UHGV virus genome: UHGV-0199215
DNA: 54,684 bases
Origin: a virus
Direction: 5' to 3' (one strand)
This document shows positions 1 through 16,892 of the stretch, in pieces. Under the pieces are notes generated by a model. The model was not told where the DNA came from. It searched no databases and was given only the letters and a program-made list of their open reading frames with translations. Position numbers and translations under genes: made by a program. Every line of letters begins with the position of its first letter. Position 1 is the stretch's first letter.

Positions 1-51
1 ATCTTTATCACGGGAAGCAGCGATGGGTTGCTTATGAACGAGGGTGTGAAA

Positions 52-435
52 ATGGGAATGTATACCGAATTAGTGTTGAAGTGTCAGATTAAAGAAAATG
101 TACCTGTGGATGTGAAAGCTGTTATTGCACATATGTTCTGTGGTGAAAAAGAACCAGAGAAACTACCACAACATAAGTTTTTCAGTCTCCCCAGATGGAA
201 TTTTATTGGTAGTTGTAGCAGTTTTTATCATCACCCGGAAGTAATAAATAGTTGCCCTAAATTTGATTTCACCGATACTCAATATATTTTTAGTCGTAGC
301 GATATTAAAAATTATGATGGTGAGATTGAACAATTTATCGACTGGTTGAAACCGTATGTTGATGCTGAAGATGGTGCGTGTATTGGTTGGACGTGGTACG
401 AAGAAGAATTACAACCAAAATTAATCATTAAATAA
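52..435 (+). CDS. hypothetical protein
   Basis: ORF 28..435; ATG at 52 follows GAGGGTG Shine-Dalgarno; no recognisable motif. Confidence 0.45.
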   Translation: MGMYTELVLKCQIKENVPVDVKAVIAHMFCGEKEPEKLPQHKFFSLPRWNFIGSCSSFYHHPEVINSCPKFDFTDTQYIFSRSDIKNYDGEIEQFIDWLKPYVDAEDGACIGWTWYEEELQPKLIIK

Positions 436-450
436 CTCCGAGACGCTAAA

Positions 451-830
451 ATGAAGAAACTGATTCTATGCGCAATGTTAACAACCCTGACAGCCTGTGA
501 TAACGCTGCTGATGTTGCCAGTCGTAACGTTGCAACCGCTGCAGCTAACTTTGAAGTAAATCGTCGTATCGTTTTCTATAACGTTCGTAATGGTGAGTAT
601 CGTTTTCTATCGAAGGTCGTTGTGCCCGTGAGAACACTAGCAAAGAGATCGAAATCACCTGTAAAACTGGTCCGAACGACGTTAAGAAACACTTTATGGG
701 GTTAACCACGGAGGTAACTTATTTCATTGAACAAACAGACTCCTCGCCAACAGATCAGTATCGTTATCGTGTTACGTTTAACCCGATGCAAATTCTCCCG
801 GATCTAAACATCCGTCACCTTGGAGAATAA
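451..830 (+). CDS. putative lipoprotein with a reading-frame break near 594-600 (continues in -1 frame to TAA at 828-830)
   Basis: N-terminus MKKLILCAMLTTLTAC is a signal peptide plus lipobox; frame-1 ORF ends at 705 but an open -1 frame runs 597..830. Confidence 0.4.
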
Positions 831-833
831 CCT

Positions 834-995
834 ATGGGTAAAAAGAAAAGGAAACCGCCAGTTAAGAAAGAACCATATAAGCCACGACATGTTAATGAAT
901 TATGGGCTAAAGATGTGGACGATTTTACTGAATCTGACTGGAGTAAAGTCACAAGGTTGATCGTTAAATTAAAACGTCTATCGAGGTATGCATAA
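834..995 (+). CDS. small basic protein (53 aa)
   Basis: ATG at 834 with GGAGAA 8 nt upstream; below the ORF-track size cutoff. Confidence 0.3.
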   Translation: MGKKKRKPPVKKEPYKPRHVNELWAKDVDDFTESDWSKVTRLIVKLKRLSRYA

Positions 996-1270
996 TGTGT
1001 GACTGTATGAAAAAAGTTGGTGACGAACTTCAAAAACGTCTGATGGAAAAAGTACCAGTAGGTTCGGAAGTCAGCACTAACCTGTTTGATAAAGTTGGCT
1101 GGGATAATCAGTGTTTCGGTCTGACGTCTGGTAAAATACACGTTATGTTGAAATATCGTCTTGCATACCGCGCTAAAAAGAAAAACGGTGAACTGGCGAA
1201 GAACTTCACACGCCTGGAAACCAACATCAAAATGTCTTATTGTCCGTTCTGCGGGGAGAAACAGGAGTAA
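995..1270 (+). CDS. small Cys-rich protein (possible zinc ribbon)
   Basis: ORF with CxC at N-terminus and CPFC at C-terminus. Confidence 0.45.
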   Translation: MCDCMKKVGDELQKRLMEKVPVGSEVSTNLFDKVGWDNQCFGLTSGKIHVMLKYRLAYRAKKKNGELAKNFTRLETNIKMSYCPFCGEKQE

Positions 1271-1275
1271 CCGCT

Positions 1276-1506
1276 ATGGGAATGAAACAAATATGGGATG
1301 GTAAAAACCTTCCTCCCATTGGTTGTGAAGTGTTGATCCATCTGGCAAGCATTAACAAGTGGGTGGTACGAACTGTTCAGGGTTATGAAATATGGCCTTC
1401 TGTTTATGAAAATGATACTGCACATCACAGGATAAACATAAAATTTGAAGATAATGTTCGTCTGTTATGTGATGTGCGACCTCTTGACTGGCGTGAACCT
1501 GATTAA
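1276..1506 (+). CDS. hypothetical protein with WDGxxLPPxG motif
   Basis: ATG at 1276 after CAGGAG; shares N-terminal motif with ORF 4927..5391. Confidence 0.45.
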   Translation: MGMKQIWDGKNLPPIGCEVLIHLASINKWVVRTVQGYEIWPSVYENDTAHHRINIKFEDNVRLLCDVRPLDWREPD

Positions 1507-1539
1507 CTGGGTTCGATGGTTGTACTGAGTGGTTAAAAT

Positions 1540-1573
1540 GGAATCCAAATATAACCACTCTAATACGTATAAT
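1540..1573. terminator. hairpin between convergent genes
   Basis: 9-bp inverted repeat gagtggtta / taaccactc; no strong U-run. Confidence 0.3.
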
Positions 1574-2532
1574 CACGGGATAACATTTATATCTTGAGGG
1601 AGAGAATAAGCAACCCGGCAACGACAATTAATCACGTTCGCGGCACTACCGTTAGGATCACGAGGAAACATAAGTGGTCCTAACGGCGTTGAAAACGGTC
1701 TGTCCATTGGTATCCAGCCATTCGTTTCACCTGTGGAAATATGCGCGTCACGTGTCCGACCATCCTTCCTGTACAACCAACGTTTTAATAATTCATTACT
1801 GATCGACCCCGTAACCTGACCCTGACGAATAGCCTGGTCCTGACCAACGGATACAGCACGAAGTGATTCAGTACGCGCTATTGTCTCTGTACGCTGTTTT
1901 ACGTAACGCAAGCGTGTCTGTTCGATTATCTGGTCAATCTTCGCCTGTGATAGTTTCCCGGCACTTACAGCGTTCTTCGCACTGTCTGTAACAGTGGTCA
2001 GACTGTTCACATAACCTGCTTCACCTTTTTCCAGTGCTGACCGCAGACGTTGAACCGTCATTTCCTGCCGTGTGGTTAACCCTATTGATGATCGAAAATC
2101 ACGGGCTATCTGACGCGGATTTCGTCCGGTTACCACACCCTGATTAACTGCAATCTGAACAGCTTTGACTGTTTCGTCACTGACTTCACGGATCAGTTGT
2201 CCGACATAGTTGTTGATGTATGTACTGACCTGTGGGGTGACCAGACTGAACACAACCGGACCTGTCACAGCCGCTTTCGGTAAAACCTGAACGACTACAC
2301 GACCTGATTCGGCGATAGCATCTTCAATAACCGGGCGCAACTGTGCACTAAGTTCATCAGGGAGTGTTTCAAGAATGGGAAGTAATCCGGCAACACCCTG
2401 AGTTTCAATGATGTATTCCAGGTTAGCTAACGACTCACTACGACGCACGTTTTCCCACACGACATCAAGTGCTTCGCGAATGCGAGCGTCATACTTGTCT
2501 GAAATATCCGGGTATGGGTCTTTAGTAGCCAT
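1573..2532 (-). CDS. head morphogenesis protein (Mu F / SPP1 gp7 family)
   Basis: 319 aa; RTESLRA and NCRCR motifs typical of this family; sits after portal in minus-strand order. Confidence 0.8.
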   Translation of the reverse strand: MATKDPYPDISDKYDARIREALDVVWENVRRSESLANLEYIIETQGVAGLLPILETLPDELSAQLRPVIEDAIAESGRVVVQVLPKAAVTGPVVFSLVTPQVSTYINNYVGQLIREVSDETVKAVQIAVNQGVVTGRNPRQIARDFRSSIGLTTRQEMTVQRLRSALEKGEAGYVNSLTTVTDSAKNAVSAGKLSQAKIDQIIEQTRLRYVKQRTETIARTESLRAVSVGQDQAIRQGQVTGSISNELLKRWLYRKDGRTRDAHISTGETNGWIPMDRPFSTPLGPLMFPRDPNGSAANVINCRCRVAYSLPQDINVIP

Positions 2533-2560
2533 AAAAAAGCCTCAGTTAACACACTGAGGC
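2533..2560 (-). terminator. hairpin plus U-run immediately upstream of the MuF start
   Basis: gcctcagttaacacactgaggc palindrome followed on minus strand by U6; 3' arm contains GAGG 9 nt before the ATG. Confidence 0.45.
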
Positions 2561-2705
2561 CGATTATATCATGTGTTACGGGCGTGGAAGATTACGTTTT
2601 TCAGTTCCCTGAATGCGGTTCTTAACTTCGCGGATCTGTTCTTCCAGAAACTGTAACGCTTTTTGCGCTCGTTCGTAGTCTATTTCAAGTTCACGTAATA
2701 ATTTT

Positions 2706-2900
2706 TCATCTTTTGTCACGAGTATAACGTCCTTTAAAACCGGGTCTGACCATCAACTTACCATTCACTACCGCGTGAAATTCACCGTTGGTGTCATCCA
2801 TATATTTATAAACTGTCGCTTTATTACACCCAATCCGCCTGGCAAGTTCTGTCACGTTGCCATAAACGGTGGGTAGTAATTCAGAAATAGTTTGAACCAT
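2706..2900 (-). CDS. putative HTH DNA-binding protein
   Basis: 64 aa; helix-turn-helix-like segment VTELARRIGCNKATVYKYM. Confidence 0.5.
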   Translation of the reverse strand: MVQTISELLPTVYGNVTELARRIGCNKATVYKYMDDTNGEFHAVVNGKLMVRPGFKGRYTRDKR

Positions 2901-3115
2901 TATAATAGTTCCCCTCTGTCATGTGCCACACGTTCGATTAACCGAATCGTGGCAGACCGTTTATCACCGTCATAAGGTTCTTCATAACGAAGATCGTCTG
3001 TGAAAACGATTTGTTCACGGTCACAGTGAATAACAATAATATCGTACTTGACCAGAAGGTCGAATGCCTGTTCACCGTTCATCGTTAAGATATTCCTCTG
3101 CGTGTAATGCAGCAT
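2900..3115 (-). CDS. hypothetical protein
   Basis: 71-aa ORF contiguous with neighbours on minus strand. Confidence 0.45.
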   Translation of the reverse strand: MLHYTQRNILTMNGEQAFDLLVKYDIIVIHCDREQIVFTDDLRYEEPYDGDKRSATIRLIERVAHDRGELL

Positions 3116-3830
3116 AGCTGATCAGGTCTTCCAGACTGTCACGATGTGGTGTTTCAGTGTTGGAATAGAAACGAACCGCTTTTAACAGCATCAGGAATAA
3201 CCACCCTTCACCCGGTGTTAAGTCGCGCCCGGTAATTGTGTTAAACGCAGCAACGATTTTAGCTGACGAACGTTCCTGACCAGACGTGTCATACTGCTTA
3301 CCACGTTCTGTCAGTAGCTGTTCAGCCTGTTTCAGTAAGTCAGACGCTGTTGATGGTTGTTGGACAGGTGTGAATGTACAGCGACAATTTGAAAGTGGTG
3401 TAATTGTTTCAGTTCCGACGGTCATTGGTGACCAGGAACGTTTGTCTGTAATACGAATAGCATAACCATGTTCGACTAACTGGTCGTCATTCCACCCGGT
3501 CGCAATGAATTCTTCGTAAGTATTACCACGGGCTTTCGGTGTCATTAACAGTTTTGTTTTGACAGATGTTGCTGGACCACAAGGGCGTTTTTCAAAGATT
3601 TCAAAGTCATCAGCATTGTCGATAATTTGTGGCGGATTTCTTAAAATTGGTGCGTACATTGAACCGTCAGACCATGCAAAAGTGTTTGTTGTCTTATTAA
3701 GAACAACACATGTAGCCCAGTCTGGCGCTTCACTCCAGTCTACTTGTTGTGTTTTCATTCGATAGTTAAGTGATTGTTTTTCACTTTCAGCATCATATGC
3801 AGGTATGTTCCACGGATGTTCAAACATCAT
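3072..3830 (-). CDS. hypothetical protein
   Basis: 252 aa; internal TYEEFIATGWNDDQLVEHGY motif also found at C-terminus of ORF 30824..31615. Confidence 0.55.
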   Translation of the reverse strand: MMFEHPWNIPAYDAESEKQSLNYRMKTQQVDWSEAPDWATCVVLNKTTNTFAWSDGSMYAPILRNPPQIIDNADDFEIFEKRPCGPATSVKTKLLMTPKARGNTYEEFIATGWNDDQLVEHGYAIRITDKRSWSPMTVGTETITPLSNCRCTFTPVQQPSTASDLLKQAEQLLTERGKQYDTSGQERSSAKIVAAFNTITGRDLTPGEGWLFLMLLKAVRFYSNTETPHRDSLEDLISYAALHAEEYLNDER

Positions 3831-3857: not shown

Positions 3858-3903
3858 AAGTTTAAAATAATTCTTGACACATTGCAAGCGGTCACACTAA
3901 CAT
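3858..3903 (+). promoter_or_regulatory. conserved phage promoter (UP-like TTTAAAATAATTC, -35 TTGACA)
   Basis: TTGACA at 3874-3879, 17-18 nt spacer, weak -10 CTAACA/TAACAT; member of repeated promoter family. Confidence 0.6.
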
Positions 3904-3937
3904 TTGTCACGAACGAAACACACTGAGGAATCAAACA

Positions 3938-4108
3938 ATGACTAATGAAGATGTTGCTAAACAATTGCGAAAAATCGCGGATCTGATTGATAGTGGTGAA
4001 CTTTTACCAATTCGTGTCCGTAAGAATAACGATATTTTAGGTCAAACTGGTAAACTTGAAATTGTTTTTCATTTACCCGCAAAACAAGAGGAATCAAACA
4101 ATGACTAA
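3938..4108 (+). CDS. small protein (56 aa) upstream of dUTPase
   Basis: ATG at 3938 with GAGGAA; stop overlaps the dUTPase start (ATGACTAA). Confidence 0.4.
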   Translation: MTNEDVAKQLRKIADLIDSGELLPIRVRKNNDILGQTGKLEIVFHLPAKQEESNND

Positions 4109-4604
4109 CCTGTATATCAAAAAACTAACATCCCACGCTGAACTTCCGACACGTGTAACACCAGACAGCGCCGGGTTAGACGTTCGTGCTTGCCTGTGGG
4201 AAGAATCGGTAACCATATTCACAGAATCAGGCGCTAAAGTGGAACGTCCGGTTGTTGCAGGAACAATCGCATTATGGCCCGGCGACCGCGCTATGATCCC
4301 CACTGGTCTGAAAATGTCAGTTGATAGCGGATATTGCATTAAATTATATCCACGTTCCGGCATGAGTCTTAAACACGGGCTGTCACTGATCAACTGTGTG
4401 GGTATCGGTGATCGTGATTACAAAGAAGAATACTACGTTACGCTGACTAACCACGGGCAGAAATTACAGACTATCGCAGACGGTGAACGCGTTTGTCAGC
4501 TCATGGTTGAACGTGTCGAACCTGTTAACCTGGTTGAAGTGGAAGAATTACCAGATATTGATAGTCAGCGTAATGGCGGGTTTGGATCAACAGGACGGGC
4601 GTGA
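4101..4604 (+). CDS. dut: dUTP diphosphatase (dUTPase)
   Basis: Motifs AGLDVRA, IPTG, PRSG, GIGDRDY and RNGGFGSTG match the five dUTPase motifs. Confidence 0.9.
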   Translation: MTNLYIKKLTSHAELPTRVTPDSAGLDVRACLWEESVTIFTESGAKVERPVVAGTIALWPGDRAMIPTGLKMSVDSGYCIKLYPRSGMSLKHGLSLINCVGIGDRDYKEEYYVTLTNHGQKLQTIADGERVCQLMVERVEPVNLVEVEELPDIDSQRNGGFGSTGRA

Positions 4605-4930
4605 TGAACAATCGTGATTTATTAGTCAACGCAGCACGGGCTGCTGAAATCCAGGGTAAATATTACGTCGCGTACGACGAACATTACATAAACGAAGGTA
4701 TTGATATAGGTAATGGTCGCCTGTGGAACCCTCTTACACGTAATGAGGATGCTTTCAGTCTGATGGTTAACATGTACATGGATCTGGATGTTCGTGACAA
4801 CGAAGTGACGGTTAATAACCCTGACACTGGCGTTAGTTATAAGCAACCAGTTAGCCACGGAGAAGACCGTGAAAAAGCAACGCGTTTAGCGATCGTCAAC
4901 TGTGCTGCAATTGTGGGATCGTATTTATGA
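4604..4930 (+). CDS. hypothetical protein
   Basis: ATG at 4604 overlaps the dUTPase stop (TGATG). Confidence 0.5.
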   Translation: MNNRDLLVNAARAAEIQGKYYVAYDEHYINEGIDIGNGRLWNPLTRNEDAFSLMVNMYMDLDVRDNEVTVNNPDTGVSYKQPVSHGEDREKATRLAIVNCAAIVGSYL

Positions 4931-5391
4931 AAAGTTTTTGTGAAAAACACATGCGTGATAACAGTGATCAAAAACATGGTATTTGTCCTGACTGTGTGAA
5001 TGAAAAACAACAATGGGATGGTGAAGGTTTACCACCTGTCGGTACAGTATGCGAGTGGTTAGCAAGCGTTGATCACGATTGGGTAAAGGTGACGGTATTA
5101 GGTCATCATGGTGATGATACATGGTTAAAGCCTGATGACGGTACACAATCATTTATTGTAGGTAACGCGGAAAACTTCAGACCTATTCCGAATGAACGTG
5201 AAAAGGCTATTGATGAAATGAGAAATTCGGTTACTAACTATAACAATACATCTGTTATTCACGCGATAGAGCAACTTTATGATGCTGGTTATCGTAAATT
5301 GTCAGCAATGCCCAGTTTTAAATGGCAATATTTCTGCAGTACATGTGGGCGTATAGTTGAACCAGGTCAGGAACATAATCACAGGTGCTAA
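4927..5391 (+). CDS. hypothetical Cys-rich protein with WDGxxLPPxG motif
   Basis: 154 aa; CPDC and CSTCG clusters; ATGA overlap with upstream gene. Confidence 0.5.
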   Translation: MKSFCEKHMRDNSDQKHGICPDCVNEKQQWDGEGLPPVGTVCEWLASVDHDWVKVTVLGHHGDDTWLKPDDGTQSFIVGNAENFRPIPNEREKAIDEMRNSVTNYNNTSVIHAIEQLYDAGYRKLSAMPSFKWQYFCSTCGRIVEPGQEHNHRC

Positions 5392-5393
5392 CC

Positions 5394-5642
5394 ATGACGA
5401 TATTTAAAAACGCAATGGGCGATACTGTCGCGTATCTGCCGAAAGTCATTATTGCAGATCCGTCCTGTGTTGATTACCCACACAGCAAGCAATCTGAAGC
5501 GACCTACAACGACCTGTGCGTTGATATTATGCGTGGTTGTGACATCGGTATTGAACGACTTCAGAAACTTCGGGAGGAATACGAAAAACGGTCTGTACAG
5601 GCCGCAATGGGTTTACCGACTGTCTACGACAATTTAAAATAA
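5394..5642 (+). CDS. hypothetical protein
   Basis: ATG at 5394 after AGGTG; track ORF begins at a GTG at 5385. Confidence 0.45.
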   Translation: MTIFKNAMGDTVAYLPKVIIADPSCVDYPHSKQSEATYNDLCVDIMRGCDIGIERLQKLREEYEKRSVQAAMGLPTVYDNLK

Positions 5643-5680
5643 TTCTCGACGGATTACACAAGGACGTGTAACCTACAAAC
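5636..5680 (+). promoter_or_regulatory. degenerate copy of the conserved promoter (-35 TCGACG)
   Basis: TTTAAAATAATTCTCGACGGATTACACA matches the family except T to C in the -35. Confidence 0.35.
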
Positions 5681-5704
5681 ATCAAAACAAAGGAGGACAT
5701 AATC

Positions 5705-6049
5705 ATGTCATTCACTATTTTATGGATTCTTTTCTCTCTGGTTGTCGCGGGTGTTGCCAAACAAACAGGTCGTAACCCTGGTGTATGGTTCTTTATCGCA
5801 TTTCTCACAAGTCCTGTGATCGGTGGTCTGATTTTGCTAATAGCATATCTGTTTAACGGTAAGGTCGTAAGGGGACAACCGAAAGTGGTAACCACGGGGA
5901 TGTTCAGCAATTACCTTGCAGCCTATAACTATGTCAATGAACATTACACTATTGATACTGACTACCGGGCAGAAGCAGCAAGTGACCTGTTTAAGTATGC
6001 TACCTGTCGCGAGGACTGTGATAAACTGATCTCGAAGTATGTTAACTGA
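5705..6049 (+). CDS. small membrane protein
   Basis: Strong AAGGAGGA Shine-Dalgarno; two hydrophobic helices at N-terminus. Confidence 0.55.
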   Translation: MSFTILWILFSLVVAGVAKQTGRNPGVWFFIAFLTSPVIGGLILLIAYLFNGKVVRGQPKVVTTGMFSNYLAAYNYVNEHYTIDTDYRAEAASDLFKYATCREDCDKLISKYVN

Positions 6050-6064
6050 CAGGAGAAGACTTAA

Positions 6065-6397
6065 ATGCGTTTTGAAATTCTTGAGCTTGTTAAATATGAC
6101 AAGACTGCTGCTGAAATTCTGGTTGATGCAGTTGCTGACAATGAAGTGAAATTTAAACTACTTAACAAAGTCTGGAAATACATTGTAACCACGACTATTG
6201 TTGAGCAAGCATCACAGTTTAAGGAAGTTGTCGCTGACATGTACGCGTTCACTGGCGATGATGAAGTCAAACTGCAATTGCTTGATAAAACGCTGGAACG
6301 TGCGATCAACAACAGTTATCCGTTACAGACTCGTATTCAGACTGCGATTGATGAAGCGAGTAAATTACTGTCAATCGTGCAGCCTGAAACTAAGTAA
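6065..6397 (+). CDS. hypothetical protein
   Basis: 110-aa ORF with AGGAGAAG upstream. Confidence 0.5.
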   Translation: MRFEILELVKYDKTAAEILVDAVADNEVKFKLLNKVWKYIVTTTIVEQASQFKEVVADMYAFTGDDEVKLQLLDKTLERAINNSYPLQTRIQTAIDEASKLLSIVQPETK

Positions 6398-6403
6398 AAT
6401 TAA

Positions 6404-6428
6404 GGGACCAGGAACGGTCCCTTTTTCA
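6404..6428 (+). terminator. rho-independent terminator
   Basis: gggaccaggaacggtccc hairpin followed by TTTTT. Confidence 0.7.
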
Positions 6429-6429: not shown

Positions 6430-7785
6430 TCAGTCGTCAATAGACGGTAATCCGTCCCCAGCTTTATCAATCCCCGTAATAGGTAGACCCGCCTCTTTAT
6501 ATACGTATTCCTGAAGGTCTGGATCCGGGAATACAGGTGCGCCAGCTTGTGCTAAACGAGCAAGTGCCGTAGTCAATGTTTCAATACTGTCTTTACTGAT
6601 CGACCCGGCGCGAATCGACGGGCGGTATTCATCAGGAAATGCGTTTAACGACCATAACTGCGGTATCAACTGACGATTAACACATTCTACAATACTATCA
6701 ATACGTGATTGCATTGCGCGGATCCATAATTCAGTACGACTACCCAGGTTAGCGTTATTCCCGGTATTACCACCCGTTCCGAAAAACATGAAATCTGCCA
6801 GTAACGCGCGGGCAATACTGGTATCCAGACGTTTAATCGTCCGGTCAATATCCACAGAACTGGTCTGGTTAGGTGTAACGAATTCCAGTTTCACCTGTTG
6901 TTCACCACCATACGTGGTAACACCTGTTTCGTTATCATAACCCGTGATATACGGTTTAGAATAAATCACCAGCCCTGATTGTTCATTGCGTTTGATATTG
7001 GCGACGATATTTTCATAGTTATCAATCATCGCCTGTGCTGCCTGACGTTGTTGTTCAGGAACGTTGGGGTCATTAGCCGCTTTCTTAATATCTGCGTTAA
7101 CAGTAATTACCGGGAACCCTGTACCACGTTCGGCAAGTATGGATTCGATTTCCATATTCACTTTTTTGTAGTACCACGGACGATAAGCTGTGCGCAGCAG
7201 TGATAAACCTTCCGGGTTACCTTTATTCGGACTTGAAATCAAATGAAGCGAACGGTCACGCGTGATTAACGTCGTTGTACCCTGGTTAGGTGAACGTTGA
7301 TAAATACCACGAACATAACCTGTCGGCTCTTCAATATCCCAGCCAGCAAGCGTTTCAGGTGCTACAGGAACCAGACGGGCAATACCCACAGTGCCGTCAT
7401 CAAGGTCTTTGACCCAGATGTCATACCAACCCCAGCCGAATACATCAACGTCTGTCCATGTCTGAACGAACGCGGACCAGGTATCATCCGGGAGTGCACC
7501 ACGCGGATCACCCATTTTATTTTCAATAGCATCCTGTAACCATTCTGAATAACGAATAGCTTCTGGATCATCTTTGTCAGACGGGTCAAAAATCCACTGT
7601 ACAGAACGATAAACGCTACTCATAGCGAATAACACACCGCCAATAGTTTCGTCGTTCTCAGCCATCTGACGCAGAATACGACGGCCTTGTTTACCGTTCA
7701 GCTTAGGAAGGAAATCGTCGTTTACCTGGTTGCCTGTTCGACTGTACCCGGCAACGGCTAGTTGTTCGAATTGTTGATCAGCCAT
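6430..7785 (-). CDS. portal protein
   Basis: 451 aa, between terminase and head morphogenesis genes in minus-strand order; portal-like size and composition. Confidence 0.8.
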   Translation of the reverse strand: MADQQFEQLAVAGYSRTGNQVNDDFLPKLNGKQGRRILRQMAENDETIGGVLFAMSSVYRSVQWIFDPSDKDDPEAIRYSEWLQDAIENKMGDPRGALPDDTWSAFVQTWTDVDVFGWGWYDIWVKDLDDGTVGIARLVPVAPETLAGWDIEEPTGYVRGIYQRSPNQGTTTLITRDRSLHLISSPNKGNPEGLSLLRTAYRPWYYKKVNMEIESILAERGTGFPVITVNADIKKAANDPNVPEQQRQAAQAMIDNYENIVANIKRNEQSGLVIYSKPYITGYDNETGVTTYGGEQQVKLEFVTPNQTSSVDIDRTIKRLDTSIARALLADFMFFGTGGNTGNNANLGSRTELWIRAMQSRIDSIVECVNRQLIPQLWSLNAFPDEYRPSIRAGSISKDSIETLTTALARLAQAGAPVFPDPDLQEYVYKEAGLPITGIDKAGDGLPSIDD

Positions 7786-7851
7786 GTTCTACAGGCTCCA
7801 TACGGTTTACGGTTCTTAACGTATGTTATATCAGTGATGGTTTTTTTGCAC

Positions 7852-9349: not shown

Positions 9350-9374
9350 AAAAAGCCCCGGAACTGTCCGGGGC
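9349..9374 (-). terminator. terminator downstream of large terminase (probably bidirectional)
   Basis: gccccggaactgtccggggc hairpin; U-run follows on the minus strand. Confidence 0.55.
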
Positions 9375-9475
9375 AAAGTCAATCAGTAAAACGTGAACGC
9401 GGAAAACTGTAATGGTACTATGAACGGACTGGTAAACCCTATAAAAACGGGCGGGAATAATCCCGCCACACTGTT

Positions 9476-11239
9476 TTAAAAAATGTCACCGTATTCAGGA
9501 GTACCAACAGGATTCACACCACCAGTAAATGGTTCTTCAACGAATTCAGTGCGTTTTGGTGATAGTGCAATAACCGCAGCATCGAAAAAGTTTGGTGACT
9601 TACTTCCGTTTGGTTTCTTGTCGATCACAATCTTCCCGGCACCGTTACTGGTATACGTTGGCTGACTTAACTCAGCTTCTAACCGTTGTGCATTTTCCAG
9701 TGATGGATCAATCAGAATGATTTCGTCCGGATCCTGTGGTTGACCTTCCACATACCATTTATAAATTCGCTGGCAACGCAAACGTAATGCCCACGAAGCC
9801 TGTGCTTTATAATTTGAGAAATAATCTTTGTTTGATTTACGGTCTTTGTCACCAGGTTTCGTACCACCGATAATATCACCACCCGGATCCACAACTTTTC
9901 CATTCGGTAACCACGGGCGCACACGGAAGCGTAAAGTATCTTTACGGTCATTTGCCGCTACTTTAACGCCTGTACCAACACCGTTAACTTCGTACCAGTA
10001 TTCATCAACACCCAGCATATTAGCCATCGTCAGCATCCCTGGTGCAGCCAGTTCAGCGCCCCTGTTGTCAAGTTGCAAATGTGTCAGGAATACCCCGTGA
10101 GCAATTACCAGTGCGCTTGCGTCTTCACCACCGTCTGCGGCATCCTGTCCGGCGATACGTTGACCTGTTGGTGTAAGTAGTCCATTAGCTTTGCGCCATT
10201 CTGTGTCACGGAACGCATCAAAAGCAGCGCGTACCCATTCAGCTTTAATCAGTACACCCTGAACAGCAGCGGCATAATCGCGGTCAACTTCCTGTGCGAA
10301 AATATGCTGTAAACCTTTTTCAGCGAATGATTGTTTTTCTCGCTTATACCATTCGTCATCTTTAGCCGGGTGATCGCGCCAGTCCAGAACCATGACACGC
10401 AATTTACCACGAGGTAATTTCTTGCCCGGTTCCCACTCCAGACCAGCTTTACGATTGCGATAAAAAACGTTACCAACGCCATTAACTGAACTGATGTCGA
10501 TACGAACGTTGGTGTTAGCTGACAACGACGCTTCGATCAGCTCAGGACGATCTACGTGTGCCGCTTCATCCAAGAAATAGACAGACTTACGACCACCACG
10601 ACCGATGTTATCGCCAGCTTCGCCAGTAATTGTTGCACCGTTTTCAGGATTGATACATTTCATATAAACCAGATGGTCTTTTTCACGCAGGCCAACAGGA
10701 CGTAATTCCGGTGGTAATGCGCGGATAATCTGGCGAATCTTTTCAAAAATACTATCCGGGTCACCCAGTTTATCGACAAGCTGTTCTTTACGTGATCCCC
10801 AGCCAACTGAAGAACCGGGACGATACAGCCACGCCCACACAGACAAACCACAGGCTACCCAGGTCGCGCCATAGTCTCGCGATTTTTCCCAAAGCCCTTT
10901 TTCTTTGTCTTCAAGCGCTTCGTAAACAAACTGAACCATATCAATCTGACGTTCGAACAGGCAGAAAGGCATGTTGGGTGGGTATTCAGTACCAACGTTA
11001 CGCGGGTCATAAGTAAACGCCCAGTCGAGAATGAACGCTACAGGGTTTGTTTCGTAATACTTTTTCAGTACCGGGACAATTGCCCGATCCGTGCGCATAC
11101 GATTTAACAGGTTAATACGGTCAATATAACACTGTTTGTAATCTGGTCGTGGCTGACCTTTTCGCCAGATACGTTCGTCGTTTGCGTAAGCATCCCGCCA
11201 ACGCGGGTAATTATGAATATTTCCAGTAAACTTATTCAT
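9476..11239 (-). CDS. terL: terminase large subunit
   Basis: 587 aa, ATPase plus nuclease-sized protein upstream of portal in minus-strand order. Confidence 0.85.
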   Translation of the reverse strand: MNKFTGNIHNYPRWRDAYANDERIWRKGQPRPDYKQCYIDRINLLNRMRTDRAIVPVLKKYYETNPVAFILDWAFTYDPRNVGTEYPPNMPFCLFERQIDMVQFVYEALEDKEKGLWEKSRDYGATWVACGLSVWAWLYRPGSSVGWGSRKEQLVDKLGDPDSIFEKIRQIIRALPPELRPVGLREKDHLVYMKCINPENGATITGEAGDNIGRGGRKSVYFLDEAAHVDRPELIEASLSANTNVRIDISSVNGVGNVFYRNRKAGLEWEPGKKLPRGKLRVMVLDWRDHPAKDDEWYKREKQSFAEKGLQHIFAQEVDRDYAAAVQGVLIKAEWVRAAFDAFRDTEWRKANGLLTPTGQRIAGQDAADGGEDASALVIAHGVFLTHLQLDNRGAELAAPGMLTMANMLGVDEYWYEVNGVGTGVKVAANDRKDTLRFRVRPWLPNGKVVDPGGDIIGGTKPGDKDRKSNKDYFSNYKAQASWALRLRCQRIYKWYVEGQPQDPDEIILIDPSLENAQRLEAELSQPTYTSNGAGKIVIDKKPNGSKSPNFFDAAVIALSPKRTEFVEEPFTGGVNPVGTPEYGDIF

Positions 11240-11302
11240 GATTATCGGTCCGTTTGTAACTGTTCTGTACAGTTTACCACGGGTGACAGGTGGTAACAGA
11301 GG

Positions 11303-11344
11303 TTTAAAATAATTCTTGACAGATTACAGGCTTGCGGTTATGCT
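11303..11344 (+). promoter_or_regulatory. conserved phage promoter
   Basis: -35 TTGACA 11316-11321, 17 nt spacer, -10 TATGCT. Confidence 0.65.
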
Positions 11345-11487
11345 TTAGTTATCAAATGAACAGGGGTAGTGAATCGTGGAAGAATATACGTTTGTAATAG
11401 GCTTTATCACGGGTGCTTTAACCGTGTTCGCAGGTATATATGTTGGGTCTAAAATCAGTCGGTAAATGAACAGAGGGTTTAAAGAAG

Positions 11488-11664
11488 ATGAAAGTTAAAA
11501 TTACAAAATCAAACTGTACTTTCGTTAAAATTGGTGAAGTTACAGAAGTTTTAGATAGTATCAGTGGTCATAAACTATTGTGGTCTAATTCACTCCTGAA
11601 ATACGAAAAATTATCATGGGTTGTAAATTTCTGGGGTGTGAAATACGAAGAAGTAAAAGATTAA
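11488..11664 (+). CDS. small protein (58 aa)
   Basis: ATG with AGAGGG/AAGAAG upstream; below track cutoff. Confidence 0.35.
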   Translation: MKVKITKSNCTFVKIGEVTEVLDSISGHKLLWSNSLLKYEKLSWVVNFWGVKYEEVKD

Positions 11665-11728
11665 CATGATTATATAAAACCGAATATTATTGAAACATAC
11701 ATTCAAGAAAACAAGAGGATTATACAGA

Positions 11729-11947
11729 ATGAAAATCACTAAACAAGAACTGAAAAATTTTGGCGCATGTCAGGAAGGTTTTAAACGTTTCATCATTCAG
11801 ACTAACAACACTGATGAACCGGTTGAAGTTATTAGTCTAATCGGTGGTAAAAACTTTCGTGATTGTCTGAAACAGGCTAAAAAAGCTGGTTGGGTTTTCA
11901 AAGAAAACAATACAGTTTGTTTTGCACCAGGTCATGGAGTCAAATAA
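11729..11947 (+). CDS. hypothetical protein
   Basis: ATG 11729 after AAGAGGA. Confidence 0.45.
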   Translation: MKITKQELKNFGACQEGFKRFIIQTNNTDEPVEVISLIGGKNFRDCLKQAKKAGWVFKENNTVCFAPGHGVK

Positions 11948-12264
11948 TGAATGTATCTGATAATCAAAACATGTGGTTTATCCGCAAACCTACTTGTAGT
12001 GATAAATATAAAGCTCTTGATGTCCATCATTATATTGAACAATATGAGATTATAAATAAAACACCAAAAGGTTGGCGTGTTAAATGTCGTTACAGCGATA
12101 AAGGTCGTGTATTACTCAAAAACTCTTATCACTGTTTTTGTTCTGAAAAAGACGCGCTAGAATTCCTCGCAAATGAGGCCAACAACATGGCGGCGTTGTT
12201 AGATGAACGTAAATTAACATATGTTCGTCTATTGTGTGATTGTCGTGATGCGTTAAAAAGGTGA
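11947..12264 (+). CDS. hypothetical protein
   Basis: TAATG stop-start overlap with upstream ORF. Confidence 0.45.
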   Translation: MNVSDNQNMWFIRKPTCSDKYKALDVHHYIEQYEIINKTPKGWRVKCRYSDKGRVLLKNSYHCFCSEKDALEFLANEANNMAALLDERKLTYVRLLCDCRDALKR

Positions 12265-12271
12265 TTGAACT

Positions 12272-12433
12272 ATGAAGATATTTCTCAAACGATTATTCTG
12301 CAAACACGAATGGTATTTATATCGTACTATCCACGGTGATGAACGTAATTACGCCACTCAGGAACACCGTTGTAAGTTGTGTGATAAACATCGCTATTCA
12401 GGTGGTAATTATAATGTGGAACATTTGTCATAA
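12272..12433 (+). CDS. small Cys/His-rich protein (53 aa)
   Basis: CKHEW...CKLCDKH pattern; short. Confidence 0.35.
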   Translation: MKIFLKRLFCKHEWYLYRTIHGDERNYATQEHRCKLCDKHRYSGGNYNVEHLS

Positions 12434-12686
12434 ATCCGGGCGCGTACTGTTCACCACAAATGATGAACGGACCGCTATGAATCGTGCTAAATACGGGTGG
12501 AGGGTTAAAAAAGTGGATGACCGTTACGAAATTGCAAAACAACATGGAATGTCGATAGAGTTCATCGACTGGTTCTGGGAGAACAAGAAAGCCAGTTCAG
12601 GTAGTGTCTGGTTTATCACCATGAGCGCAATGTGGGAAGGATGGAAAGCCAGTCGGGAACAGTTACATGTGGAGACATTGAAATGA
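12414..12686 (+). CDS. hypothetical protein
   Basis: In-frame ATG at 12414; start uncertain. Confidence 0.4.
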   Translation: MWNICHKSGRVLFTTNDERTAMNRAKYGWRVKKVDDRYEIAKQHGMSIEFIDWFWENKKASSGSVWFITMSAMWEGWKASREQLHVETLK

Positions 12687-12904
12687 GTTTGCTTGGTTTA
12701 GTTAGTGCATTTGTAGTCGGTATGATAGTTGGAGTAATGTTAATGGTGTTGATTGTTGTACTGGTAATGCGAACTTAGTTGGGAAAGGTGAAAAGTCAGT
12801 CGTTAACAACGTACCAGCCGAAACCCCTGTTAAATTATCGTAAATCCTATACCATCTTCACCAGTTCCACACTACCCTGAAACTATCAAACAGGAGTGTG
12901 GAAC

Positions 12905-13111
12905 ATGTTCAGATACGTTTTAAAATTACTCGCCATCATTGCAACCTGGCTGATCATACAGTCCGGGTATGACCTTCGTGTTCGTAACCAATGCTCAGAC
13001 TATCAACGAATTACACGAACTGCGACAATCTACAGTCACGGTATTTGTTACGCCGCAGACAGTGACGGACAGTTTAAAATAATTCTTGACGGTTTACACA
13101 TCATCAGATAG
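12905..13111 (+). CDS. small membrane protein
   Basis: CAGGAG 8 nt upstream of ATG 12905; hydrophobic N-terminus. Confidence 0.4.
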   Translation: MFRYVLKLLAIIATWLIIQSGYDLRVRNQCSDYQRITRTATIYSHGICYAADSDGQFKIILDGLHIIR

Positions 13112-13114
13112 ACT
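13070..13114 (+). promoter_or_regulatory. conserved phage promoter
   Basis: -35 TTGACG 13086-13091, 17 nt, -10 TAGACT. Confidence 0.6.
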
Positions 13115-13146
13115 TCAGTTTGTGTAAAACAACTGGAGTTATCACC

Positions 13147-13413
13147 ATGTTTAAAACTGGTCAACACGTAGAAATCACCAGTCCACGACTGTTAGAAATT
13201 CTCGCACGTCGCAAATCTCAACCGTTCGGCACTGTTGTAGCGGTCGATCTGCAAGCTGAATACCCGGTTAAAGTTCGCATCACTGACGATACAGGGTTTC
13301 AAATCCCCTTCACGTTCAACGGTGAACAGTGCAATTACACTTTCTCATTTACTATGAACGGTCATCATGACCATCGTAGCCTGACACCTGATTTAAAAGT
13401 GGTGAACGTATGA
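13147..13413 (+). CDS. hypothetical protein
   Basis: ATG 13147 after GGAG. Confidence 0.45.
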   Translation: MFKTGQHVEITSPRLLEILARRKSQPFGTVVAVDLQAEYPVKVRITDDTGFQIPFTFNGEQCNYTFSFTMNGHHDHRSLTPDLKVVNV

Positions 13414-13565
13414 TCTTAGATTACATGATTAAATTATTAGGTTCCGCTAACACGTTGTGGGGTGTTCCACCACAAGGAATTATTACTGATCGTAAACAAC
13501 CACATCGTAAAACAGGTATTGCAAAAGCCCGGCGCGACGCGAAGAAAAGAAGGAACAGGAAATGA
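13410..13565 (+). CDS. small basic protein (51 aa)
   Basis: ATGA overlaps at both ends; Lys/Arg-rich C-terminus. Confidence 0.3.
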   Translation: MILDYMIKLLGSANTLWGVPPQGIITDRKQPHRKTGIAKARRDAKKRRNRK

Positions 13566-13759
13566 AACTATCAGAAGCACAAGATTATCAGCGTAGAATT
13601 TCAGACCTCATTAAACAGTTAAACTGTACGATACACGAAGCCTCAATCGTCGGAATTAATGTTGAACTTGATTTATACGAAGAACAAAAACTAAGTGGTG
13701 TAAACACTGTTGTTCTTGACGGAAAAGTTACTATCAAACCACAGGACATTGAACTATGA
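13562..13759 (+). CDS. hypothetical protein
   Basis: 65-aa ORF translationally coupled to neighbours. Confidence 0.45.
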
Positions 13760-14679
13760 ACTTCTTTAAAAACGCAATCGTTTATCGTCTGACTAATCCT
13801 ATGGTATTAATGGCCCAGTTACCAACACTGGAAGACAGTCTGTGTGCGTTTCAATTCAATCCGTGCGGTTCACAGGATATGGCACGTACTGGTTGGGTTC
13901 CGGCAACTGAACAACATCATACACTGGTTCACCAGGCTAACGGGCAATATTTGCTGACCATCCAGAAACAGGAAAAGATTATTCCGGGTCCGGTCATTAA
14001 ACAGCATCTGAACGCGCGAATCGCCAAACTGGAAGCTGAACAGGCGCGTAAACTGAAGAAAACAGAGAAAGATAGCCTGAAAGATGAAGTATTGCACAGT
14101 CTGTTACCACGAGCATTCGTTAAAAACAGTCGTACACAGTTGTGGATTGATATCACTAGCGGGTTGATCGTGGTTGATGCGTCCAGTGCTAAACGGGCTG
14201 AAGATGCATTAGCACTGTTGCGTAAATCCCTGGGTAGTCTGCCAGTCGTCCCGCTGACGATGGAAAACCCTGTTGAACTGACAGCAACGGAGTGGGTACG
14301 TTCAGGAAACGCACCAGCAGGTTTTACAATGGGTGACGCTGCTGAACTGAAAGCGATCCTGACTGACGGTGGTGTTGCACGCGTTAAAAAACAGGATTTA
14401 ACCAGTGACGAAATAGCCACGCATATTGAAGCCGGGAAAGTTGTTACAAAACTGGCGTTGGACTGGCAGCAGCGGGTAACGTTTACGCTAACTGACAGTA
14501 TGACATTAAACCGTGTGAAGTTCTGCGATGAACTGGTGTTACAGAATGACGATATTGAACGTGAAGATATGTTAGCCCGGTTCGACGCTGATTTTGTACT
14601 AATGACAGGTGAACTTCAGGCGCTGATCAAACAACTTATCACTGCTTTGGGTGGGGAGGCGAAACGTACAAGTTACTGA
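13756..14679 (+). CDS. rdgC: recombination-associated protein RdgC homologue
   Basis: 307 aa; N-terminus [12 protein letters not shown] resembles E. coli RdgC (MLWFKNLMVYRL) and length matches. Confidence 0.75.
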
Positions 14680-14687
14680 AACAAAGT

Positions 14688-14728
14688 TTAAAATAATTCT
14701 TGACGGATTACACAGGGAAGTGTAAATT
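14688..14728 (+). promoter_or_regulatory. conserved phage promoter
   Basis: -35 TTGACG 14700-14705, 17 nt, -10 TAAATT. Confidence 0.6.
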
Positions 14729-14763
14729 ACTCACATAGACAACAAAATGTGAGGAACTGGAAA

Positions 14764-14937
14764 ATGACTAAATCTAAGATGAAAAAAGTGCTGAAAACCT
14801 GGATGGAAAACTACAACTGTTCTCTGGAAGATGCTGTTATCATCGCTCACAAAAACCACCCGTCACTTTCCGCAGTTATCGCCAGCGCTGAAATGGATCT
14901 AATGGTTGAAGGTTTATTGAATGCTGCTGGAATCTGA
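14764..14937 (+). CDS. hypothetical protein
   Basis: ATG 14764 after GAGGAA. Confidence 0.45.
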   Translation: MTKSKMKKVLKTWMENYNCSLEDAVIIAHKNHPSLSAVIASAEMDLMVEGLLNAAGI

Positions 14938-15184
14938 AAAACAAGCCGTCGCCCTATTTGAAAAAATGGGGCGTTTTTACGTTGAACAACGACTGAATGA
15001 AATTAGTGATTCAGCTACTGAACGTTATAACAATTGCCGTGATATTCCTGGTGGTTGGTGTGTGATTGATTTTATGACACCAGATGAACTATCAGAACGT
15101 CACATATTGTTATTGGCTTTGACACTATGTACCGATCCGGTTAACGAAGCACGACAAAGAATTTTGCAGAGACGTTTAAAATAA
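14921..15184 (+). CDS. hypothetical protein
   Basis: 87-aa ORF; 3' end overlaps the next promoter. Confidence 0.45.
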   Translation: MLLESEKQAVALFEKMGRFYVEQRLNEISDSATERYNNCRDIPGGWCVIDFMTPDELSERHILLLALTLCTDPVNEARQRILQRRLK

Positions 15185-15217
15185 TTCTTGACGGATTACA
15201 CTGTTTTACCCTATAAT
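15172..15217 (+). promoter_or_regulatory. conserved phage promoter
   Basis: -35 TTGACG 15188-15193, consensus -10 TATAAT at 15212-15217. Confidence 0.7.
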
Positions 15218-15252
15218 TATCTCATTGAAACAGACAAGTTAGGAACTGGAAA

Positions 15253-15441
15253 ATGAAAAACTTCGAAACTAAAGCAGAGTGTGAAAAATATATCGTAGCT
15301 GAATATGGTGAATGTGCTTTTCAGGTCGGTGTAATTTTCGCTTATCGTGTAAAACCAATCGAAGCAAAAATGTTTGGTTTGGTTGAAGGTTCTTATATGT
15401 CCAGTAACGAATTTGATGAAGCAACAGGGTACGGTCGTTAA
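15253..15441 (+). CDS. hypothetical protein
   Basis: Initiation region GGAACTGGAAAATGA duplicated from the 14764 gene. Confidence 0.45.
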   Translation: MKNFETKAECEKYIVAEYGECAFQVGVIFAYRVKPIEAKMFGLVEGSYMSSNEFDEATGYGR

Positions 15442-15647
15442 TGAATTATATTCCAAAATGCCTTCGTGAAATACCGAAGGTAAAACAAAAACCCCGTAAA
15501 CAAGCGATAAAAGAAGCGAAAATTGAGGCTTTCAATATCGCCATTTCTATAATCAACGATAAATGTCGTATCGAAAAATCTGATCGCATGAAATCAAACA
15601 TGTTTTCAGCAATGAGCGAAATAGCGATTTTACGTGATAAGCTCTAA
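15441..15647 (+). CDS. hypothetical protein
   Basis: 68-aa ORF, ATG overlaps upstream stop. Confidence 0.45.
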   Translation: MNYIPKCLREIPKVKQKPRKQAIKEAKIEAFNIAISIINDKCRIEKSDRMKSNMFSAMSEIAILRDKL

Positions 15648-15650
15648 AAC

Positions 15651-15667
15651 GCCCCGTAAGGGGCTTT
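15651..15667. terminator. bidirectional terminator hairpin
   Basis: gccccgtaaggggc stem-loop with T-rich flank; lies between convergent plus cassette and terminase small subunit. Confidence 0.5.
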
Positions 15668-15755
15668 AACACCTTCAGCAGTACACTTGCACTACTCAAC
15701 CCTGTTTATCGAAAAAGCAAACGGTTTCCGGCACGATTTAAGCCGGAATAACCGC

Positions 15756-16391
15756 CTATTTAAGCGCATTCTGATACAGTTGCGCGATATCGTCGATGGT
15801 TGCACCTTCAGGAACACTCTGAACCACGTTACCAACCACACCAGACAATTCCACCCGGTCGATACTGTTACCGGTGATCTTATCCAGTTGTTCAGACGCT
15901 TTTGCACGAGTTTTCGGGTCGAACAGTTCACGCGTCACCAGAATGTATCCGCCCAGCATGTAACGTTTGTAGCAAACTACGTACTGTTGCAGATGGCTGG
16001 GGATATCGTCGGTACTGTTCACCCACAGGTGTTTCGCTTCTGTGTCGTCTTCACCAGGGACGATAACGCGTTGACAATACGGTTCCAGTAATTCTTCAGC
16101 CGTGCTTGCCGCTCGTTTCCACCACTCGACACGACTCGTTAACGATTCCCCGACAGACTCAAGCGCATGACTTCCCATCGCGTCCAGATAGTTCAACACC
16201 TTCGTATTCGACAGGAGGCGGTGTGCAGTGACTTTAGCTGCGTCAGGGTCTTTATGCCCCGGATAAGCGTGTAAGACGCACTGAGCGTTGCTGAAGCCGT
16301 TATTGACACGATCTAACCACAGGTTAGCGAAACGGAGTTGATCAGTTGTTAACTCCAGAGCAGCCCTTTTAGCCCGGTCTGAAATTTTCAT
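15756..16391 (-). CDS. terS: terminase small subunit (putative)
   Basis: LTTDQLRFANLWL...AYPG resembles the LTxKQxxFxxEY...AGYS signature of small terminases; first in minus-strand packaging order. Confidence 0.55.
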   Translation of the reverse strand: MKISDRAKRAALELTTDQLRFANLWLDRVNNGFSNAQCVLHAYPGHKDPDAAKVTAHRLLSNTKVLNYLDAMGSHALESVGESLTSRVEWWKRAASTAEELLEPYCQRVIVPGEDDTEAKHLWVNSTDDIPSHLQQYVVCYKRYMLGGYILVTRELFDPKTRAKASEQLDKITGNSIDRVELSGVVGNVVQSVPEGATIDDIAQLYQNALK

Positions 16392-16454
16392 AAATTTGTC
16401 TCCCATAAATTTTAAATTAGTTTCCCACAGATACCCACGGGTTGTCCACACGCC

Positions 16455-16892
16455 CTGTTTTACAGCTAATACAATGTTAGTATTAATTTTACAGTTAGTG
16501 CACAACATGCACTAATTTTCGACTATATACATAAATACGCAATCCATAATCACAATAATTTCAAAGACTTGCATAAAAACATAGATTACAATAGGTATCT
16601 CCCAGACTTTTATTTTAGCTCTATTTACAGCTAATACACTATATGCACTATCTCTATCTTTCTATACTACTTCTTTTTTATATCTATGTTTTCTATGTTA
16701 TCTATGAAAAGATAATAAAAAGAATAAGATAGGGAAGGGTTGGTTAAAAAGTAAACATGACGAAATCTATGTTAAATATAACTTTAATGCACAATATGCA
16801 CTATATAATTCACAACGTGCATTAGCTGTACCAACATAGATACACAACGTGCACTAACAGCTAATACACAACGTGCATCTTGCACTAGCTGC
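16455..16892. promoter_or_regulatory. array of operator-like sites (core GCTAATACA / ACACAACGTGCA)
   Basis: At least 6 related sites at about 16462, 16498, 16627, 16786, 16809 and 16841-16892 in a 550-bp AT-rich divergent intergenic region. Confidence 0.5.
16685..16771. repeat. 87-bp conserved intergenic element, copy A
   Basis: About 93 percent identical to 54457..54543. Confidence 0.7.

Follow-up and report, generated by a model that had tools for sequence, protein, structure and literature searches.

Opposite-strand cassettes of small genes between the packaging and head genes of a 9NA-like siphophage genome

Gene organisation of the packaging and head region

The window analysed here is the whole 54,684-nt sequence of the virus genome UHGV-0199215, and the subject of this work is the arrangement of its packaging and head genes and of the small genes that lie between them. 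The genes for the small terminase (TerS), the large terminase (TerL), the portal and a MuF-like head morphogenesis protein are located on the minus strand in canonical order, and searches against PHROGs and Pfam bore out these assignments, which the initial annotation had made from the sequence without database searches. Its four plus-strand blocks of small genes between the head genes were likewise recovered; these blocks, designated cassettes A, B, C and D, comprise 5, 7, 5 and about 15 genes, respectively (Table 1). The dUTPase, the RdgC homologue, the membrane proteins, the Cys-rich proteins and the repeat protein listed for them are all present. Membrane or lipoprotein-like proteins are encoded by A2, B6, C4, C5, D6 and D7, and Cys-rich proteins by A4, B4, C3, D3 and D4, while the beta-repeat protein is C2, which has no orthologue in ten relatives.

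Four small minus-strand genes at 2576-3830, upstream of the MuF gene and co-oriented with it, were absent from the earlier description. The TerS gene more likely starts at 16391 than at 16508, because the former start has a good Shine-Dalgarno sequence and gives the 636-nt gene annotated in 9NA, Sasha and PJ16. A further head gene, encoding a protease of the XkdF-like family, was assigned by Pfam search.

Positions 1-16508 were compared by megablast with 50,697 phage records. Nucleotide identity was about 95% to the Escherichia coli phages vB_EcoS_PJ16, KarinMuster_Bas82 and AVIO78A and to two 'Sashavirus' records, 84-88% to the Salmonella phages 9NA, Sasha, Sergei and Solent, and about 80% to Klebsiella phages. 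This identity and the shared core genes, with TerL at 96-100% amino-acid identity, place the phage among the 9NA-like phages (Nonanavirus/Sashavirus), as does the synteny of the virion-assembly genes, which follow the canonical order with small genes between them. The last and first bases of the window are contiguous in Bas82 and Sasha (...GGTAGGGTATCTTTA...), where ...GACGGTAGGGT and ATCTTTATCACGG... follow each other without interruption. This contiguity, examined with regard to pac-type headful packaging, is consistent with a circular assembly and suggests a complete genome in circular permutation, with the ends of the window inside a promoter. The window is thus predicted to be the complete 55-kb genome of an E. 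coli 9NA-like siphophage (Nonanavirus/Sashavirus). No tRNA, no Rfam family and no E. coli Chi site were identified in scans of the whole window.

The same alternation of head genes and cassettes is annotated in 9NA, PJ16, Bas82, Sasha, Sergei, AVIO78A, Carvaje and KP13-27, and it is still seen at about 60% TerL identity, in the Proteus phage PM-CJR (60%) and in Flyfo Tbat2_2 (59%). At 49-50% TerL identity (Vibrio 1.251.O and Enterobacter Mulvp2) small genes are interspersed and mostly co-directional, and at 46% (Rhizobium RHph_I72) TerS, TerL and portal genes are contiguous in the canonical manner. The arrangement, described initially as unusual, is indeed so in comparison with canonical phages such as RHph_I72, but it is a conserved hallmark of the 9NA/Sashavirus/Gorganvirus lineage.

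The ratio of non-synonymous to synonymous substitution rates (dN/dS, Nei-Gojobori method) is 0.03-0.6 for the cassette open reading frames (ORFs) that have an orthologue in relatives, and 0.01-0.27 for the four core genes; the exception is B1, a doubtful gene with dN/dS of about 1.2. PHROG families are matched by 28 of the 33 cassette ORFs, nearly all of them families without assigned function. The idea that the plus-strand ORFs are chance non-coding ORFs, or that the alternation is an artefact of assembly or inversion, could draw on the few weak cases: B1, the three ORFs for which no homologue was found (D6, D12 and D13), the frameshifted A2, and again D13, which is doubtful as a gene because a strong plus-strand terminator lies inside it. 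However, dN/dS is well under 1 for the shared ORFs, most ORFs match a PHROG family, and order and strands are alike in more than ten independently sequenced genomes from four host genera, which makes this idea extremely improbable and refutes it for the bulk of the ORFs. The lack of coding signal that had been named initially as an outcome contradicting the description is therefore not seen in most of the ORFs, and the shared cassette ORFs are, as judged from their conservation, real genes.

The A2 gene is a single lipoprotein-like gene, annotated as 'RDF' in Bas82. Relative to Bas82_0030 and AVIO78A_043, one nucleotide is missing from a T-run near position 606, and the gene is thereby cut into two ORFs. 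The split represents either a pseudogene or a sequencing error. The products of A5 (1276-1506) and B4 (4927-5391) share the domain WDG..LPP(I/V)G and both match phrog_3483 and phrog_7798, suggesting paralogous modules in two different cassettes.

Table 1. Positions of genes, promoter copies, upstream elements and hairpins in the window
Feature	Position	Strand	Details
MuF-like head morphogenesis gene	1573-2532	-	phrog_2468, 1e-69; PF04233 (Phage_Mu_F)
Four small genes co-oriented with MuF	2576-3830	-	47 aa; NinH (64 aa); 60 aa; 252 aa (DUF6378 C-terminus)
Portal	6430-7785	-	phrog_113; PF06074 (Portal_Mu)
TerL	9476-11239	-	phrog_2; 99.8% amino-acid identity to annotated TerL of PJ16 and PDP46
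TerS (211 aa)	15756-16391	-	phrog_51, 7e-12; annotated TerS in PJ16, Sasha, AVIO78A
Cassette A, 5 genes	52-1506	+	PHROG matches; dN/dS 0.03-0.18
A1	52-435	+	
A2	451-705 plus 696-830	+	
A3	834-995	+	
A4	995-1270	+	
A5	1276-1506	+	
Cassette B, 7 genes (B1-B7)	3938-6397	+	B1 doubtful; B6 membrane
B2 (dUTPase)	4101-4604	+	
Cassette C, 5 genes (C1-C5)	7928-9349	+	C3 Zn-ribbon-like, 7 Cys; C5 three transmembrane segments
Cassette D, about 15 small ORFs (D1-D15)	11488-15647	+	
D11 (RdgC)	13756-14679	+	PF04381, 384 bits
Class I, cassette A	54649-54672 (element 54649-54684)	+	-35 TTGACG; -10 TATCTT spans window end and start
Class I, head of cassette B	3862-3906	+	
Class I, internal to cassette B	5634-5678	+	
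Class I, head of cassette C	7856-7900	+	
Class I, head of cassette D	11304-11348	+	
Class I, further cassette D copies	13074-13118, 14688-14732, 15176-15221	+	
Class I, before exonuclease, SSAP, DNA polymerase operon	28756, 28820	+	
Class I, before further early-type small genes and ParB-like gene	23444, 21900	-	
Class I, before 115-aa ORF	54339	-	
Extended -10-like element before TerL	11274-11283	-	CCCGTGGTAA (aligned form ACCCGTGGTAAACT); 35 nt upstream of ATG; then palindrome AACTGTACAGAACAGTT
Second copy of TerL-upstream element	11404-11413	-	
Variant element before TerS	16432-16442	-	ACCCGTGGGTA (aligned form ACCCGTGGGTATCT)
Extended -10-like element before MuF	2563-2571	-	TGATATAAT
Hairpin before MuF ATG	2538-2561	-	9-bp hairpin plus U6; MuF Shine-Dalgarno in 3' arm
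Extended -10-like element before portal	7825-7833	-	TGATATAAC; upstream conservation
CCYGTGRTWA copies	5-14, 4448-4457, 5376-5385, 5889-5898, 9908-9917, 11274-11283, 11404-11413, 53941-53950	-	
CCYGTGRTWA copy	16912-16921	+	
Bidirectional hairpin terminator, cassette B/portal	6402-6423		U-run good on plus, weak on minus
Cassette D/TerS convergent junction	15651-15752		
Weak hairpin after cassette D	15651-15664	+	GCCCCGTAAGGGGC; 5-bp stem plus UUU
Hairpin plus U-run after TerS stop	~15722-15752	-	
Strong terminator inside ORF D13	14950-14973	+	Internal to cassette D
Two hairpins after cassette C	9355-9374, 9450-9467	-	U-runs on minus strand

Promoters, terminators and elements upstream of the morphogenesis genes

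An unbiased 8-mer scan of the window identified a promoter family, here called class I, as the most over-represented word family. Its 24-nt consensus is TTAAAATAATTCTTGACGGATTAC (repeat finding gives TTTAAAATAATTCTTGACGGATTAC), and 13 copies were found at three or fewer mismatches versus 0.00 expected from 100 shuffles. The layout comprises an UP-like A/T-rich tract, TTGAC(G/A), a spacer of 17-18 nt and a TAnnnT -10 sequence. A generic scan with sigma-70 and terminator consensus sequences gave sites no commoner than in shuffled sequence, so that only the repeat-based promoter motif is informative. All four cassettes are headed by a class I copy, in agreement with the promoter ascribed initially to each block, except that the copy of cassette A lies outside the range given there, across the circular junction. 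Cassette B carries two copies and cassette D four. A class I copy heads every cassette in 8/8 enterobacterial relatives, and a diverged copy is present in the Proteus phage. Since class I copies also head the replication operons, early expression of the cassettes is likely; most probably the unmodified host RNA polymerase transcribes them as early or middle genes. In the literature, no transcriptome was found for any phage of the 9NA group.

Both strands of every convergent junction were folded. A terminator had also been ascribed to each block; on the plus strand one is clear for cassette B and weak for cassette D, but absent for A and C. Cassette A is followed by a 9-bp hairpin with a U-run on neither strand, and the two hairpins after cassette C are likely terminators of TerL rather than of the cassette, because it is on the minus strand that they carry U-runs. 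Where cassette A meets the 3' end of the MuF gene (1508-1612, hairpin included), there is no nucleotide homology to 7/8 relatives, although both flanks are conserved; this stretch appears to be a small local replacement. In the tail module the window has only hairpins (45819-45841 and 46613-46635) at places where relatives carry opposite-strand insertions. Such insertions are found in Bas82 (locus L011, 8024-8287 and 9141-10236) and in 9NA (locus L015, 4692-5588); they comprise a hypothetical gene and, ahead of the tape measure gene, genes for an endonuclease and for superinfection immunity.

The divergent gaps are short, with about 28-65 nt from the start of a minus-strand gene to the neighbouring plus-strand promoter. 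Alignment of the upstream regions across relatives revealed conserved TGn-extended -10-like elements without a -35 sequence upstream of the morphogenesis genes, and ACCCGTGGTTAACT precedes the head operon that starts with the XkdF protease in 9NA, Sasha and the Klebsiella phages. TerS, TerL, portal and MuF are thus probably separate late units. In the hairpin located before the MuF gene (2538-2561) the stem is conserved in all enterobacterial relatives and the loop varies; it may terminate the upstream m252-m47 genes (those for the 252-aa to the 47-aa protein), stabilise the 5' end or control translation.

The second most over-represented word family is the 10-mer CCYGTGRTWA, with 24 copies versus 0.75 expected (about 30-fold). 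The minus strand carries 10/11 copies in the region from 1 to 16.4 kb, three of them within cassette B, in antisense orientation and upstream of the MuF operon; past 16.9 kb the plus strand carries most copies. The 10-mer occurs just upstream of TerS, TerL and the head operon. It is enriched in all enterobacterial relatives; its orientation in relatives is similar, with positions partly turned over, and there is no conservation of the flanking sequence. It could represent the core of a phage-specific late promoter class, or a polar signal oriented away from an origin-like region upstream of TerS. A role as a plain extended -10 promoter is not established, as many copies lie within genes and a final T is not conserved in the flanks. 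Replichore-like polarity of the motif around the region upstream of TerS is suggestive only, and is not claimed: polarity concordance is 19/24 in the window, 16/19 in Bas82, 11/14 in 9NA and 7/10 in Carvaje, with permutation p values of 0.07, 0.04, 0.31 and 0.94, respectively.

These minus-strand copies bear on the possibility that the interleaving is itself regulatory, antisense RNA or interference from late minus-strand transcription shutting off the early genes, and early plus-strand transcription delaying the morphogenesis genes. The convergent and divergent alternation is strict and is conserved down to 60% TerL identity. The copies in cassette B (4457, 5385 and 5898) run antisense to its genes and precede the MuF operon, where intergenic space for a promoter is nearly lacking; cassettes A and C have no plus-strand U-run terminators, so collisions would be possible. 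However, minus-strand terminators follow TerS, TerL and, more weakly, portal, which argues for insulated units rather than read-through. Moreover, the 10-mer is only a putative promoter, and co-directional interspersed genes are tolerated in the Vibrio and Enterobacter relatives. Regulation by interleaving is considered unlikely.

The two largest intergenic regions of the window, 16392-16939 and 54322-54648, have in common a 100-nt AT-rich, iteron-bearing repeat, whose copies at 16672-16771 and 54444-54543 are 90% identical. They also contain operator-like palindromes, namely two copies of TAGCTAATACA-N5-TGTATTAGCTA, abutting the cassette A promoter, and five copies of TAATGCACAAYRTGCAYTA. Both regions are candidate origin or regulatory regions. 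Next to the second, on the minus strand, the 115-aa ORF (53944-54362) lies directly upstream of the XkdF-like protease gene and so leads the head operon. It has no PHROG or Pfam match, a 21-nt tandem repeat lies within it (~54062-54114), and a class I promoter of its own is located at 54339; the ORF is present in PJ16 and Bas82 and absent from 9NA, Sasha and the Klebsiella phages.

Turnover and possible functions of the cassette genes

The presence or absence of each gene in the loci of ten relatives was determined by tblastn. The synteny comparison agrees with the initial suggestion that the cassettes might vary between related phages: the four core genes are present in all relatives, and the cassette genes are patchy. 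A semi-core set comprising A4, the dUTPase, B3, B5, B6, C3 and C4 spans the phages of Escherichia, Salmonella and Klebsiella, while C2, D1, D3, D6, D12 and D13 are missing from all ten loci. For D12-D13 (14764-15184) no DNA match was found in the 50,697 phage records. The D14-D15 genes are 100% identical to those of Sasha and Sergei, yet missing from the closest E. coli phages. Cassette D is the most variable block, ranging from 3 genes in Sasha to 17 in KP13-27. The guanine plus cytosine (GC) content of the cassettes is 40.3% versus 47.5% in the four core genes, and that of the most variable genes is 35-39%.

The window also lacks a four-gene minus-strand cassette of about 2.1 kb, which is present downstream of TerL in PJ16, Bas82, AVIO78A, Sasha, Sergei and 9NA and carries its own class I copy. 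The junction of this missing cassette is at 9444-9450, between the two hairpins that follow cassette C. Across eight relatives, homology breakpoint clusters coincide with promoter copies (10 vs 2.7 expected, p ~3e-4) and with hairpins (7 vs 1.9 expected, p ~0.003), in a partly circular test, since alignments end by themselves at a conserved motif whose flanks have diverged. Homology resumes exactly at 14687/8 and 15175/6. It is only from these breakpoint positions that a role of the promoter and the hairpins in recombination is suggested.

The best explanation of this locus is probably that the lineage has slots between its head genes which carry promoter-driven, exchangeable accessory cassettes. 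The TerS, TerL, portal and MuF genes would then not form one operon, each standing alone on one strand, and the gaps between them would be occupied by opposite-strand cassettes of small accessory genes. Each cassette or sub-cassette would begin at a conserved sigma-70-type class I promoter, and each morphogenesis gene would have its own TGn-extended -10-like element upstream and a minus-strand hairpin terminator after it. The positions of the cassettes and their promoters would be fixed, with gene content replaced by recombination at gene boundaries, promoter copies and hairpins. The initial proposal that the blocks are promoter-driven units of small genes is supported, and they are probably autonomous.

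Several observations weigh against this explanation, to which the partial circularity of the breakpoint test also belongs. The early and late timing of the two gene sets follows from promoter type only. The class I copy at 54339 on the minus strand runs via the 115-aa ORF into the protease-scaffold-capsid operon with no terminator between, so that non-structural genes are not strictly the only ones with class I promoters. Copies of the candidate late element are also found within genes and in antisense orientation, the element lacks a conserved final T of a -10 hexamer, and upstream of the protease gene it is too close to the start codon or overlaps it; in this phage the GTG start of the protease gene lies inside a CCYGTGRTWA copy, which fits poorly with a simple promoter role. 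A more far-reaching combined proposal, that the cassettes are siphoviral equivalents of T4 hyperplastic regions with the promoter and hairpins as portable recombination sites and, jointly, that CCYGTGRTWA is a new functional signal, is doubtful.

With regard to function, the cassettes had been put forward as good places to look for host-takeover or anti-defence proteins. Searches of nearly all cassette proteins against PHROGs, Pfam, NCBIfam and PADLOC identified no defence or anti-defence family. The only named families matched were dUTPase, RdgC, NinH, DUF2560, DUF6378 and a VG64/'RDF'-like N-terminus. No significant match to A1, B3, m252 or C2 was obtained by sequence search of the PDB, and no characterised anti-defence inhibitor was found by sequence or fold (sequence searches, with a structure search for A1 only). 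The same arrangement with conserved, characterised functions in relatives had been named as evidence against the proposal; the arrangement is shared, but the only named cassette functions, dUTPase and RdgC, belong to DNA metabolism.

The A1 protein belongs to an unnamed widespread family with 171 homologues of 48-94% identity. Its AlphaFold model has a pLDDT of 93, and the structure search gave generic ferredoxin/ACT-like matches only. A homologue is located in the early region of an unrelated lambdoid-type temperate phage contig, with NinB, a Lar-like gene and an integrase nearby. Its position among the early genes of a temperate phage fits an exchangeable early accessory gene.

If the cassettes were dedicated islands of anti-defence or host takeover, the majority of the small proteins would be inhibitors of host immunity or of host processes, acting early in infection. 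The genes are indeed small, mostly orphan, promoter-proximal and probably early, their content is highly variable and their GC content low, and the A1 homologue stands beside a Lar-like restriction-alleviation gene in the other phage. RdgC could modulate host RecA, as considered for the RdgC of E. coli. However, no match to a characterised anti-defence protein or fold was obtained, and the semi-core set is kept across Escherichia, Salmonella and Klebsiella phages under purifying selection, which fits housekeeping phage functions better than arms-race genes. In addition, Bas82 was markedly sensitive to restriction-modification systems and Old in the BASEL study, and its extra genome content gave no greater robustness (PMC11990801). 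Dedicated islands of this kind are possible but rather unlikely; for some of the cassette genes host-takeover or anti-defence roles are possible, although currently unsupported.

The layout of exchangeable cassettes in fixed slots provides a natural map of accessory-gene tolerance. Four fixed slots lie among essential packaging and head genes; each has a standard promoter, and the genes it carries differ from one close relative to the next. For the engineering of Bas82-like phages they are convenient sites of payload insertion, and the approximately 33 small ORFs form a short list that could be screened for toxicity or inhibition of defence. The arrangement was known before, and none of the present results shows that the ORFs counteract host defences.

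Comparison with known systems

The closest known system is that of the 9NA-like phages themselves, which include Nonanavirus, Sashavirus, Carvajevirus and Gorganvirus. Casjens et al. (2014) noted small novel genes interspersed among the assembly genes of 9NA, a phage described as virulent (PMC4153490). The architecture is thus already known as a conserved trait of this lineage, earlier noted in print. The window resembles the other members in gene order, strands, cassette positions and promoter, at 84-96% nucleotide identity. It differs from them in having its own C2, D1 and D12-D13, in its Sasha-type D14-D15 and in lacking the four-gene cassette after TerL.

In T4, early genes with sigma-70 promoters and late virion genes without a -35 sequence are interleaved on opposite strands. 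The window shares the opposite-strand interleaving, and its late-type genes likewise have no -35 sequence. No late sigma factor of the gp55/gp33 type was identified here, and the T4 late promoter TATAAATA is absent. The two systems differ in scale, since in the window single genes alternate with cassettes.

A typical moron is a single gene of a temperate phage and is expressed from the prophage. Morons of the lambdoid phages were reportedly described by Juhala et al. and Hendrix et al. in 2000. As in morons, the insertions studied here lie between genes that are adjacent in other phages (TerS, TerL and portal are contiguous in RHph_I72), and their base composition differs from that of the neighbouring genes (GC 40.3% vs 47.5%). 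All cassettes have their own promoter, as do morons, but a clear plus-strand terminator follows B alone, D having a weak one and A and C none. Unlike morons, the cassettes are multi-gene cassettes of a virulent phage, use one phage-wide promoter and keep their positions across genera. No integrase or repressor is annotated in the full genome of Bas82 or in 9NA, and expression from a prophage was accordingly not indicated.

The hyperplastic regions of T4-type phages, with their promoter-early stem-loop (PeSL) cassettes, have been described by Arbiol et al. (2010; PMC2839356) and Comeau et al. (2014; PMC4122927). In both systems variable small ORFs without assigned function lie between conserved core blocks, a repeated early-promoter motif and stem-loops flank them, and indel or replacement junctions fall at these motifs, although in the window this last point comes from the partly circular test. 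The differences are that the window is a 55-kb siphovirus and not a T4-like myovirus, that there is no composite terminator-promoter unit between nearly every ORF but one promoter per several genes, that the promoter heads the cassette and the hairpin lies at its convergent end, and that cassettes and core genes occupy opposite strands. The cassettes can therefore be classed neither as T4 hyperplastic regions, because the composite PeSL unit is lacking and the phage is not a T4-like myovirus, nor as morons, because there is no prophage expression. Nevertheless, with their fixed positions and changing content, the cassettes would behave like the hyperplastic regions of T4-type phages.

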